Positions 34,084-43,875 are shown, counted from the first letter of the stretch. The stretch: 64,000 nucleotides of DNA from Escherichia coli (GCF_044324785.1 NZ_CP172127.1), one strand, 5' to 3'. A program made the numbers and translations. Notes: generated by a model not told the origin, from the sequence alone.

Positions 34084-34950
34084 AGCAAACATACGACATT
34101 CATTTTGCTGATAACGCTGACGGATAGTGCTTCGCCACAATGTCATTCATCTTATCCACCAGATCCAGTCGCTTGAATGTGATGTGTCCACTGCCTTTCT
34201 GAAAGTAGCGAATAGTGAACAACTCATCTTCGAAAATCTGCTGATGCGGATTATCGCGCACAAAATCCATAAACCGGATGGAGACATCATGCCGGTTATC
34301 GGGAATGGTCTTCCCATCCAGCAGGTAGAACATCCGTTCCAGATCGGCAAGCTGATCTCGCCGCCAGCCCCAGTTCAGGCTGTAGCCCCATCTGTCATGC
34401 TTCACCAGATTGTTAACGATAATCTTCTTACCGAAATAACAGGGATTATTGGTTTTGTAGTCCCAGCTTAACCCTTTAAATACATTGATAATCCCACGTT
34501 CGAAAACATCCCGTTTATTGTGGTGGAGTTGTTCAAAGGTACTCAGGATGTTGGCTTCGCTAATAGCCGGGAGATCGCCCTCCTCCAGGTTCTTTGCCCA
34601 CTGACTGCGGGCTTCGGCATCCATCAGGGTCAACATCCCGGACTTCAGCATGAGATCGCGCCAGATACCGCGGTCGATATTTCGGGTGATCACCGGCATC
34701 GCTTTGTCGGTTGGCTGCATCAGCCAGCAATCAAAGGCATATCCATTCCGCATTGCCCAGGTTCCAGCCACATTACCGCCAATACTGGATGTCAGGCTGG
34801 AGATATCATCCAGTTTTTGGATTAACGTCGCTATCTGGTTCAGTGCACTATCACGACCCGTCACGATACGCTCAATACTGGTCGAGCAAATTAGCTCGTT
34901 ATGATCGGTTAAGACTTCAGCTTCTGTTTGCATAATCTTTCATCCGTAAA
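34084..34950. repeat. Direct repeat copy A (~0.86 kb), near-identical to 43009-43875
   Basis: Identical flanking strings (agcaaacatacgacattcattttgctgataacgctgacgg at the left end, cttctgtttgcataatcttt at the right end); encoded proteins ~96% identical. Confidence 0.9.
34100..34933 (-). CDS. Conserved island protein, copy A (family often annotated DUF4942 in E. coli integrative elements)
   Basis: 277-aa ORF; paralogue of 43025..43858. Family assignment is from memory. Confidence 0.75.
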   Translation of the reverse strand: MQTEAEVLTDHNELICSTSIERIVTGRDSALNQIATLIQKLDDISSLTSSIGGNVAGTWAMRNGYAFDCWLMQPTDKAMPVITRNIDRGIWRDLMLKSGMLTLMDAEARSQWAKNLEEGDLPAISEANILSTFEQLHHNKRDVFERGIINVFKGLSWDYKTNNPCYFGKKIIVNNLVKHDRWGYSLNWGWRRDQLADLERMFYLLDGKTIPDNRHDVSIRFMDFVRDNPHQQIFEDELFTIRYFQKGSGHITFKRLDLVDKMNDIVAKHYPSALSAK

Positions 34951-35239
34951 AAAATACACTCGCCGTTAGTAGCAAACGGATTATCCACTGGTGAAAGATT
35001 GGGTAAATAATGAGATTGAAAATTGGGAAGATGACTCGCAATAAATTATCTGGTCGCCTACGGATGGGCGATGGGCATATAAAGTAGCCTCCTGACGCAA
35101 GCGGTGAATGCTGAGTAAGATGCACTAACAATCTGGTACTGAATCCCCTCCTCACCGTCATACAAATCTGAAAAACCAAACAACTTCCGGTAAAATCCCG
35201 GCAAAAGCCGACGTTAAAAACACATTCAAAGGATAAAAA

Positions 35240-36796
35240 ATGACCAGTCTTCAGCAGCGCGCGGAGCTTCATCGCCAAATCTGGCAAATTGCTAACGATG
35301 TCAGAGGTTCGGTCGATGGATGGGACTTTAAGCAATACGTTCTGGGCGCGCTTTTCTACCGTTTTATCAGCGAAAATTTTTCCAGCTATATTGAAGCCGG
35401 TGATGACAGCATCTGTTATGCGAAACTGGATGACAGCGTAATTACTGATGACATTAAAGACGATGCCATCAAAACCAAAGGCTACTTCATCTACCCAAGT
35501 CAGCTTTTCTGCAACGTAGCTGCGAAAGCAAATACCAATGACAGACTGAATGCAGATTTAAACAGCATCTTCGTTGCTATCGAAAGTTCTGCTTACGGTT
35601 ACCCTTCAGAAGCTGACATCAAAGGTTTGTTTGCTGATTTCGATACCACCAGTAACCGCCTGGGTAACACCGTTAAGGATAAAAATGCCCGCCTGGCCGC
35701 GGTTCTGAAAGGGGTTGAAGGATTAAAACTTGGTGACTTCAACGAACATCAGATTGACCTGTTCGGCGATGCCTATGAGTTCCTGATTTCTAACTATGCG
35801 GCGAATGCTGGTAAGTCAGGCGGCGAGTTCTTTACACCGCAGCACGTCTCTAAGCTGATTGCACAACTGGCTATGCACGGGCAGACCCACGTTAACAAAA
35901 TCTACGACCCGGCAGCAGGTTCCGGTTCGCTGTTGTTGCAGGCTAAAAAACAGTTCGATGACCACATCATCGAAGAAGGCTTTTTCGGTCAGGAAATCAA
36001 CCATACGACCTATAACCTGGCGCGTATGAACATGTTTTTGCACAACATCAACTACGACAAGTTTGATATCAAGCTGGGCAATACGCTGACTGAGCCGCAC
36101 TTCAGAGATGAAAAACCGTTTGATGCCATCGTTTCTAACCCACCGTATTCGGTGAAATGGATTGGCAGCGATGATCCGACGCTGATTAACGATGAGCGTT
36201 TTGCCCCAGCTGGCGTCCTGGCCCCCAAATCAAAAGCTGACTTCGCGTTTGTATTACATGCGCTGAACTATCTTTCTGCCAAAGGTCGTGCTGCGATTGT
36301 CTGCTTCCCGGGCATTTTTTACCGTGGCGGCGCGGAGCAGAAAATCCGTCAGTATCTGGTTGACAATAACTATGTCGAAACCGTGATTTCACTCGCACCG
36401 AACCTGTTCTTTGGCACCACCATTGCCGTAAATATTCTGGTGCTGTCTAAACATAAAACGGATACCAAAGTTCAGTTTATTGACGCCAGCGAACTGTTCA
36501 AAAAAGAGACTAACAACAACATCCTGACCGATGCCCATATAGAAAAAATTATGCAGGTATTTGCCAGCAAGGAAGATGTTGCTCATCTGGCGAAATCTGT
36601 TGCGTTTGAGACTGTTGTCGCGAATGACTATAACCTGTCGGTGAGCAGCTATGTGGAAGCGAAAGATAACCGCGAAATTATCGATATCGGTGAGCTGAAT
36701 GCTGAGCTGAAAACCACGGTCAGCAAAATCGACCAGTTGCGCAAAGATATTGATGCGATTGTGGCTGAAATTGAAGGCTGCGAGGTGCAGAAATGA
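35240..36796 (+). CDS. hsdM: Type I restriction-modification methyltransferase subunit, type IC (EcoR124/EcoprrI-like)
   Basis: 518 aa; N6-adenine methylase motif (SNPPYS); 4-bp ATGA overlap with hsdS; order M-S-R. Confidence 0.92.
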
Positions 36797-42567: not shown

Positions 42568-42955
42568 TTAATCTGCTGTTCCCTACAGATAATACGCGTT
42601 TAAAACGCCGGGGGGTTTTTATCTCGGGTGAAGCTGGGATCTGCGTAGAAGTACCGCTATTGTATGCCTGCGTTGCGCCAGCAAAACGATAGCGTACTTT
42701 CAGGCGTTCCAGCGTTTCGACAATCACCGCTGAAGAGCCTCCGGGAGCCGCTGGCATTACCTTGCCTGTAATACCGTTCCGCCGTGCTTTGGTATACACG
42801 CCATAACCAACCTTCAACAGTTGCCCTTCCCTGACAAGATCGCGCAATACCCGACCAACCTGATCGTAGCCTGCAATATCTTTAAAGTCGTCACGAGTGA
42901 ATACGTAACGTTTAGAACGTTTCAGTCGTGACTGAATGCGTGCTTTTATCGTCAT
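42560..42955 (-). CDS. AbiEi-like antitoxin/transcriptional regulator partner
   Basis: 131 aa from ATG 42955, preceded by a perfect AGGAGG 5 nt upstream; the track ORF to 43024 would abut the repeat and lacks an RBS. Confidence 0.6.
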   Translation of the reverse strand: MTIKARIQSRLKRSKRYVFTRDDFKDIAGYDQVGRVLRDLVREGQLLKVGYGVYTKARRNGITGKVMPAAPGGSSAVIVETLERLKVRYRFAGATQAYNSGTSTQIPASPEIKTPRRFKRVLSVGNSRLNG

Positions 42956-43008
42956 ATTCGCCTCCTGAGTCATTGCATAAAGAGTAGCAAAAATACGACA
43001 TTTTAGAT

Positions 43009-43875
43009 AGCAAACATACGACATTCATTTTGCTGATAACGCTGACGGAAAGTGCTTCGCCACGATATCATTCATCTTATCCACCAGATCCAGCCGCTTG
43101 AATGTGATATGCCCACTGCCCTTCTGAAAGTAGCGAATAGTGAACAACTCATCTTCGAAAATCTGCTGATGCGGATTATCGCGCACAAAATCCATAAACC
43201 GGATGGAGACATCATGCCGGTTATCGGGAATGGTCTTCCCATCCAGCAGGTAGAACATCCGTTCCAGATCGGCAAGCTGATCTCGCCGCCAGCCCCAGTT
43301 CAGGCTGTAGCCCCATCTGTCATGCTTCACCAGATTGTTAACGATAATCTTCTTACCGAAATAACAGGGATTATTGGTTTTGTAGTCCCAGCTCAATCCC
43401 TTAAATACATTGATAACCCCACGTTCGAAAACGTCCTGCTTATTGTGGTGGAGTTGTTCAAAGGTACTCAGGATGTTGGCTTCGCTAATCGCCGGGAGAT
43501 CGCCCTCCTCCAGGTTCTTTGCCCACTGACTGCGGGCTTCGGCATCCATCAGAGTCAACATCCCGGACTTCAGCATGAGATCGCGCCAGATGCTGCGATC
43601 GATATTGCGGGTGATCGCCGACATCGCTTTGTCGGTTGGTTGCATCAACCAGCAGTCAAAGGCATATCCATTACGCATTCCCCAGGTTCCAGCCACATCA
43701 CCGCCAATACTGGATGTCAGACTGGAGATATCATGAAGTTTTTGGATTAACGTCGCTATCTGGTTCAGTGCACTATCACGACCCGTCACGATACGTTCAA
43801 TGCTGGTCGAGCAAATTAGTTCGTTATGATCGGTTAAGACTTCAGCTTCTGTTTGCATAATCTTTTGTCCGTATA
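43009..43875. repeat. Direct repeat copy B (~0.86 kb), near-identical to 34084-34950
   Basis: Same orientation as copy A; interval between copies is ~8.06 kb. Confidence 0.9.
43025..43858 (-). CDS. Conserved island protein, copy B (DUF4942-like)
   Basis: 277 aa from ATG 43858 (MQTEAEVLTDHNELICSTSIERIVTGRD...); ~96% identical to copy A. Confidence 0.75.
   Translation of the reverse strand: MQTEAEVLTDHNELICSTSIERIVTGRDSALNQIATLIQKLHDISSLTSSIGGDVAGTWGMRNGYAFDCWLMQPTDKAMSAITRNIDRSIWRDLMLKSGMLTLMDAEARSQWAKNLEEGDLPAISEANILSTFEQLHHNKQDVFERGVINVFKGLSWDYKTNNPCYFGKKIIVNNLVKHDRWGYSLNWGWRRDQLADLERMFYLLDGKTIPDNRHDVSIRFMDFVRDNPHQQIFEDELFTIRYFQKGSGHITFKRLDLVDKMNDIVAKHFPSALSAK

Follow-up and report, generated by a model that had tools for sequence, protein, structure and literature searches.

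Defence loci related to the leuX region

Hotspot #37, the tRNA-leuX locus of Escherichia coli, is described as the most occupied of 41 defence hotspots, filled in 97% of E. coli, and as holding type IC restriction-modification (R-M) systems in 4% of enterobacterial genomes (PMC12707154). AbiEii is among the systems reported there (Hochhauser et al. 2023, PMC10121019). The 64,000-nt stretch of E. coli chromosome analysed here (GCF_044324785.1, NZ_CP172127.1; the window) represents this locus and carries a type IC system, hsdMSR, and an AbiE pair between two copies of a DUF4942 gene. It shares with hotspot #37 (PMC10121019, PMC12707154) the location, from fim/nan to leuX-ahr-lptG, as well as the type IC, AbiEii and integrase islands, while the content descriptions in these accounts omit both a resident segment and an island that share DUF4942 and the role of this gene as a recombination point. 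The immigration control region (ICR, hotspot #36) is alike as a defence locus in which homologous recombination exchanges R-M and type IV systems between conserved anchors. It lies elsewhere, lacks an integrase or attachment (att) site, and is described as devoid of type IC systems (PMC12707154).

The layout also resembles tandem arrays of islands or integrative mobilizable elements, with a partial tRNA repeat between two elements, the newer element beside the intact tRNA, and homologous genes as direct repeats. It is well established that islands accrete in tandem at a single tRNA site and that their conserved genes recombine, and direct repeats of homologous genes in such arrays can recombine, fusing or deleting elements. 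Unlike these arrays, the window has an older element that is an integrase-less remnant (McrBC, DUF4942 and hsdMSR), and only the newer one looks mobile. Cryptic elements with RadC, YeeU/CbeA, and YeeV/CbtA modules are present in E. coli K-12 as CP4-6, CP4-44, and CP4-57. The island in the window is broadly like these in its DUF932-RadC-CbeA-CbtA block, in the P4-type tyrosine integrase of its homologues and in the tRNA target; it differs in ending with DUF4942 and AbiE and in carrying Dsr1 and a second type I R-M system.

A probable tandem of two related island segments at leuX

We consider it highly probable that the window holds two related island segments in tandem at leuX, an island having been inserted by its integrase beside a resident segment. 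The features on which this reading depends are listed below.

34070-34954, no strand: direct repeat copy A (ungapped comparison with copy B)
34100-34933, minus strand: DUF4942 copy A, 277 amino acids, resident allele (Pfam PF13708; 2 nt from the A25 gene)
35240-36796, plus strand: type IC hsdM (TIGR00497)
36793-37962, plus strand: type IC hsdS (TAEL repeats)
38084-41200, plus strand: type IC hsdR (TIGR00348; PDB 2W00)
41201-41424, no strand: chromosomal spacer in the usual place between hsdR and the leuX 3' end, with a terminator-like stretch (collinear in 1303, A25, and ECO8855)
41425-41441, minus strand: partial leuX tRNA 3' end, att scar, TGGTGC-GAAGGCCGGAC with 1 nt missing (island-distal direct repeat of the integration site)
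41442-41619, no strand: island left arm, from the scar to AbiEii (matches the JNE141411 island end; homology crosses the scar from 41385)
41620-42955, minus strand: AbiEii and AbiEi, terminal island cargo (same place in JNE141411 and strain 1500)
41620-42567, minus strand: AbiEii (PADLOC, E = 8.4e-128)
42560-42955, minus strand: AbiEi/DUF6088 (PADLOC, E = 5.3e-53)
42995-43879, no strand: direct repeat copy B (ungapped comparison with copy A)
43025-43858, minus strand: DUF4942 copy B, 277 amino acids, island allele (translation; CbtA-side haplotype as in the island copies of JNE141411 and strain 1500)

Between hsdR and AbiEii lie 17 nt of the leuX 3' end with one C missing (41425-41441). The stretch 41385-41441 corresponds to the leuX-downstream flank followed by the first 17-18 nt of the 3' end of the tRNA, an arrangement seen beside hsdR in island-free genomes. 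Homology between the window and E. coli 1303 and A25 runs from position 26000 and ends exactly at 41441, with one gap at the first target recognition domain (TRD1) of hsdS; right of the scar, the sequence is unrelated. This is the only leuX 3'-end motif in the window when up to 3 mismatches are allowed. No tRNA was detected in the 64-kb window and no Rfam family in 28000-50000. At the window scar, the flank is the chromosomal one (aaaaaaagccgctcttgagcgac...); beside the intact leuX in JNE141411 and strain 1500, it stems from the island (aaaaaaagacctcagttgaggtc...). These flank versions are consistent with site-specific integration.

The same C is absent from all partial leuX copies, namely that of the window and those of L003 (position 12038), L005 (14526), L006 (14525), and L008 (13525), and the island arms adjoining these copies vary between islands. 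This pattern suggests that the attP of this integrase family brings the imperfect core with it and that the strands are exchanged at the very 3' terminus of the tRNA.

Both putative precursors of the layout are found separately. The resident segment left of the scar consists of nanS, HNH, a restriction endonuclease for phosphorothioated DNA (PT-DNA), McrC/McrB-like genes, DUF4942 copy A and hsdM-hsdS-hsdR, without an integrase. Positions 26000-36837 are contiguous with strain 1303 at 98.2% identity, and McrBC has the same order and position in 1303 and A25. In these two strains the layout reads McrCB, DUF4942, hsdMSR, intact tRNA-Leu, ahr; in 1303, A25, and ECO8855 alike, the intact leuX follows ~225 nt after hsdR, with ahr behind it, which constitutes an empty attB. 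Copy A differs from the single-copy DUF4942 of A25 at 2 of 885 nt, and owing to this closeness A25 would effectively represent the pre-integration state. Junctions were counted in 5,426 complete E. coli genomes by querying 500-nt flanks and requiring at least 80% coverage in one place. The junction McrB-DUF4942-hsdM occurs in 195 of these genomes, AbiEi-DUF4942-hsdM in 88 and AbiEi-DUF4942-CbtA in 45. Judged from these comparisons, the resident segment is a common, fixed, integrase-less segment beside intact leuX in the species.

The island right of the scar has its counterpart in a ~25-kb island at leuX in JNE141411 and strain 1500. Homology to JNE141411 amounts to 97.2-97.5% over 41385-57205 and 58567-64000, and 41442-41587 is without counterpart in resident-type genomes, whose homology starts at ~41588. 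The homologous island runs from the scar (in JNE141411) through AbiEii, AbiEi, DUF4942, CbtA, CbeA, RadC, DUF932, WYL/GTPase, type I R-M and Dsr1 to its tRNA end, which comprises a 5'-nucleotidase, a PT-DNA-binding restriction endonuclease, a tyrosine integrase, intact leuX and ahr. In JNE141411 and strain 1500, the integrase and tRNA-Leu are located ~3 kb past the equivalent of the window end (~97% identity). In JNE141411, the scar end borders on another island's integrase, which marks the element as a discrete unit terminating at the scar, found there with a neighbour other than the resident segment.

In the proposed course of events, the chromosome before integration would have been A25/1303-like, with leuX just downstream of hsdR. 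A tyrosine-integrase island of ~25 kb would then have inserted site-specifically into the leuX 3' end, leaving the 17-nt partial leuX (41425-41441) as its distal att scar and shifting the intact leuX to its far side, beyond the window. Both segments would stem from one island family whose members conserve DUF4942 at their terminus, and because they share it, integration would set two copies of 95% identity in the same orientation at a distance of 8 kb. At a tRNA hotspot, direct repeats flanking defence genes can, in such a case, reflect the stacking of related islands and not a bordered cassette, with an internal att scar as the diagnostic feature. What is specific here is the pairing of resident segment and island, which is absent from the 5,426 complete genomes and present in a draft lineage; it is nothing new in kind.

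Several points weigh against tandem integration in this strain. A second att scar bounding the resident segment was not found in the window at up to 3 mismatches. The island's integrase and intact leuX would lie beyond position 64000, where homologous islands place them. Excision, deletion and amplification in the window strain are predicted from its sequence, and the recombinant structure of strain 1500, described below, could reflect allelic exchange between strains and not an intrachromosomal deletion. It is also conceivable, though we think it quite unlikely, that the array was built by the integrase in another strain and then acquired as one block by homologous replacement through transduction or conjugation. 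The leuX region is characterised as prone to allelic replacement and highly polymorphic (PMC12707154), the DUF4942 alleles are mosaic, the flanking core genes offer long homology, and nothing in the window directly opposes such an event; on the other side, none of the 5,426 complete genomes is a donor with the window junction. Acquisition as a block would alter the place of the integration and not its nature, and the origin of the repeat would be the same.

Origin of the interval between the repeats

The interval between the repeats (34955-42994, 8,040 nt) had been interpreted in a first-pass annotation, made from the sequence alone, as one defence cassette inserted or exchanged by homologous recombination within the DUF4942 gene. 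Neither part of this interpretation held. The interval is split by the leuX scar at 41425-41441, its junction hsdR-scar-AbiEii occurs in 0 of the 5,426 complete genomes, and AbiE and copy B belong to an island integrated into leuX. Comparison of the two sides shows the interval to be composite, with hsdMSR having come, by sequence, with copy A and AbiE with copy B.

A circular or linear hsdMSR-AbiE cassette that entered the island through DUF4942 in a Campbell-type event, duplicating the gene at its borders, would account for direct repeats that coincide almost exactly with one gene. It would also draw on the proven use of DUF4942 as a crossover site in the species and on ECO8855-type genomes, which hold AbiEii, AbiEi, DUF4942 and hsdMSR in circularly permuted order. 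Its interior, however, holds the leuX-downstream flank and a partial leuX as they stand beside intact leuX in island-free genomes. The required recipient junction, McrB-DUF4942-CbtA, which is also the expected product of a deletion between copies A and B, was found in 0 of 5,426 complete genomes, whereas both alternative precursors are seen, the A25 type in the 195 genomes with its junction and the island in JNE141411. Copy A, moreover, is 2 nt from the A25 allele over its full length and lacks a hybrid pattern. We regard such a cassette as very improbable; the att scar refutes it in practice.

Some expectations of the first-pass annotation were borne out. Related genomes do contain single-copy states, both with hsd and, in strain 1500, without it, and alternative cargo is also present; the missing state is the McrB-DUF4942-CbtA host. 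As claimed, copy B occupies the customary last position of the DUF932-RadC-CbeA-CbtA module and copy A is without these partners; the gene is seen in this position in E. coli, Klebsiella and Salmonella.

The direct repeat and the DUF4942 gene

The direct repeat comprises 885 nt per copy (34070-34954 and 42995-43879), as defined by repeat search, MAFFT alignment and ungapped comparison at an offset of 8925. The copies differ by 41 mismatches (95.4% identity) and no indels, and beyond both ends their identity drops at once to background. The repeat thereby covers the DUF4942 gene, ~20 nt 5' of its ATG and 30 nt 3' of its stop codon, and its longest perfect block spans 272 nt (34197-34468). Both genes are intact, with 34 differing nucleotides in the coding sequence and 9 differing residues (96.8% protein identity). 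The repeat with two same-orientation genes of ~277 amino acids and ~96% protein identity had been recognised beforehand, with outer coordinates (34084-43875) that were right within ~15 nt, and alignment at the nucleotide level has now fixed its exact ends and found the DNA not to be far more diverged than the proteins had indicated.

We give hardly any credence to a local tandem duplication of DUF4942 with later divergence of the two genes, or to an assembly artefact joining two loci. Some short-read contigs do break inside copy A (L019 starts at 34897). Against either origin, copies A and B have unrelated flanks, are separated by 41 differences and find their closest relatives in different places, and the junctions are coherent because the att scar stands at the exact end of homology. 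In public assemblies, the exact HsdS of the window is on record in 79 blocks. Of 24 contigs with this HsdS that were read, 18 independent ones span both copies with the full layout, 5 start inside copy A and contain the hsdR-AbiE junction, and 1 ends in hsdR. This junction is present in at least 23 public draft contigs with the same HsdS. Contig L018 differs from the window by 1 mismatch in 17,170 nt, and identity of the layout in independent assemblies is 99.99-100%. The recurrence of the same layout in independent assemblies rules out an assembly artefact. These contigs show the arrangement to be stable and passed on without change in a lineage of isolates.

The Pfam domain DUF4942 (PF13708) matches residues 83-271 of the product (E = 1.4e-70). 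No NCBIfam or PADLOC family and no PDB sequence matched it, and the literature holds passing mentions only. The sole functional lead is an S-adenosylmethionine methyltransferase domain fused to some relatives. The 30 nt 3' of the stop codon (34070-34099 and 42995-43024) are kept in both copies. On the gene strand, this conserved tail contains ATGTCGT twice, ~20 nt apart, and it forms the boundary at which variable downstream cargo starts.

The terminal placement of the gene recurs beyond E. coli. In Klebsiella, DUF4942 stands after CbtA and before RHH/ParE-HTH-Trypsin_2 cargo. In Salmonella, it is the last gene before proA, with an AAA_15 ATPase pair between CbtA and DUF4942. The Salmonella islands at proA/proB encode an AAA_15/AAA_21 ATPase of 469 aa with a partner of 241 aa (locus positions 3721-5852, five contigs), which together look like a defence-type cargo of two genes on the opposite flank of DUF4942.

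Recombination within DUF4942

The alleles of DUF4942 are mosaic. Nine alleles provide 54 informative sites. The four-gamete test is violated by 524 of the 1431 pairs of sites, and the minimum number of recombination events (Rmin) is 13 in 885 nt. The haplotypes at either end of the gene track the flanking genes. In copy B coordinates, strain 1500 matches the resident type (JX2) without a difference from AbiEii to 43092, and likewise the island type (JNE141411) over 43080-46000, which places a crossover in a 13-nt interval within the 3' end of DUF4942. The left end of the island is there fused to the resident AbiE flank with no att scar, leaving a single DUF4942 and no hsd. By this sequence evidence, strain 1500 shows that exchange within DUF4942 has occurred in the species. 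Its structure is as would be expected from recombination between resident and island DUF4942 with deletion of hsdMSR, the scar and one AbiE copy, and equally as would be expected from allelic exchange between strains.

By the same reasoning, copies A and B are an inferred substrate for RecA-dependent recombination. A crossover between them would delete hsdMSR, the scar and AbiE. The island, now joined to the resident flank, would lack a distal att site and would no longer be excisable. The earlier suggestion of RecA-dependent deletion gains indirect support from the sufficient DNA identity and from the exchange within the gene in strain 1500; the deletion product itself is absent from the 5,426 complete genomes. 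Recent gene conversion between copies A and B was rejected, as the 272-nt block is nearly invariant across alleles and copy A is 2 nt from the A25 allele.

The cargo on either side of DUF4942 varies and includes McrBC, AbiE, RelE/CopG, the AAA_15 ATPase pair and type IC R-M. The locus is a concrete example of a single conserved gene of an island family providing the homology by which type IC R-M, AbiE and McrBC are reshuffled. A tentative and rather doubtful extension would see DUF4942 as a portable homology handle. Tandem arrays would then be intermediates that move cargo between islands and the fixed leuX segment and that fix islands through loss of the distal att site, and the window lineage would be a rare unresolved intermediate, perhaps held by AbiE. 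It is a speculation that the AbiE toxin-antitoxin pair within the deletable interval might explain the stability of the layout.

The JX2 allele of DUF4942 has ~35 differences in ~130 nt (equivalent to 34196-34325) and one more at 34442. This patch accounts for most variation in the otherwise near-invariant 272-nt block and looks as if it had been acquired from a far more divergent DUF4942.

Type IC R-M and AbiE genes

The genes of the R-M system are ordered hsdM-hsdS-hsdR, with hsdM and hsdS overlapping and hsdR standing apart after them, as seen from open reading frames (ORFs) and family hidden Markov models. In a phmmer search against PDB, HsdR (1038 aa) aligned over residues 1-1038 to residues 1-1038 of EcoR124I HsdR (2W00_A, 2253 bits), and for the identical HsdR in contig L018, precomputed Pfam annotation gives EcoR124_C. 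The central conserved region of the translated HsdS consists of tandem TAEL repeats in three copies. TAEL repeats in type IC HsdS fix the spacer length of the recognition site, and three copies is also the number in EcoR124II. Going by its predicted products, hsdMSR (35240-41200) is a type IC R-M system. It is like EcoR124I/II, EcoDXXI and EcoprrI in gene order, end-to-end HsdR alignment and TAEL repeats, and differs from them in being chromosomal at leuX and not plasmid-borne.

Compared with E. coli 1303 and A25, only TRD1 of HsdS (36838-37233) differs, the remaining hsdMSR being 96-98% identical; owing to this difference, the specificity of the system presumably differs from that of these relatives. 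Plasmid-borne hsdMSR relatives of ~95% identity match only 35237-41190 or 41235. We rejected hsdMSR as a self-contained plasmid module with its own flanks, as the plasmid homology comprises the coding block 35237-41235 only. This homology does not account for the placement of hsdMSR between DUF4942 and leuX.

In several genomes, the insertion sequence (IS) IS3 or IS2 lies between McrB and DUF4942. In strain 33-6 (L008, 2561-8714), hsdM is interrupted by IS3 and hsdS by IS1, meaning that insertion, and not deletion, is at times what inactivates the type IC system at this locus.

AbiEii and AbiEi are adjacent and co-oriented, with an 8-nt overlap (42560-42567), and their products, identical in L018, are annotated there with the Pfam domains AbiEii and DUF6088. 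They constitute a predicted abortive-infection toxin-antitoxin pair, with AbiEi as the putative antitoxin/regulator and AbiEii as the putative nucleotidyltransferase toxin. Between resident and island contexts, AbiEii-AbiEi shows at most ~10 differences in ~1,400 nt, and the neighbouring DUF4942 is ~3-8% different. AbiE seems to have spread recently between the fixed segment at leuX and the mobile island.

Neighbouring genes of the resident segment and the island

The remaining features of the window are as follows.

30381-33742, minus strand: McrC-like (ORF 30381-31757) and McrB-like (31688-33742) genes, downstream of copy A (NCBIfam McrB, McrC)
43973-44314, minus strand: CbtA (ORF)
44345-44680, minus strand: CbeA (ORF)
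44680-45153, minus strand: RadC (ORF)
45183-46001, minus strand: DUF932 (ORF)
46002-64000, no strand: island remainder with WYL, GTPase and 5'-nucleotidase genes, running past the window end (JNE141411 homology)
52060-58349: second type I R-M system (PADLOC)
59098-62889, minus strand: Dsr1, a full-length defence-associated sirtuin (PADLOC, 1607 bits)

The four-gene module from CbtA to DUF932 is ~97.5% identical to that of JNE141411 and strain 1500. In strains 33-6 and JX2, other islands of the family stand in tandem beside the type IC module, with a restriction endonuclease as terminal cargo and no second DUF4942. The same ~25-kb island was also found on NZ_AP023207.1 (strain TUM18781, 93,845 bp), classed in the search as a plasmid, which may be a true plasmid copy or an unplaced chromosomal piece.

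The second type I R-M system has the order hsdR-hsdM-hsdS (1138, 544, and 392 aa) and is unrelated to the type IC system. Its hsdS region (57206-58566) is the sole part of the island without homology to JNE141411, which indicates that the specificity gene was swapped between otherwise 97%-identical islands. Across 28.6-63 kb, the window presents a stack of defence genes composed of the PT-DNA restriction endonuclease/HNH, McrBC-like, type IC, AbiE, second type I R-M and Dsr1 systems.

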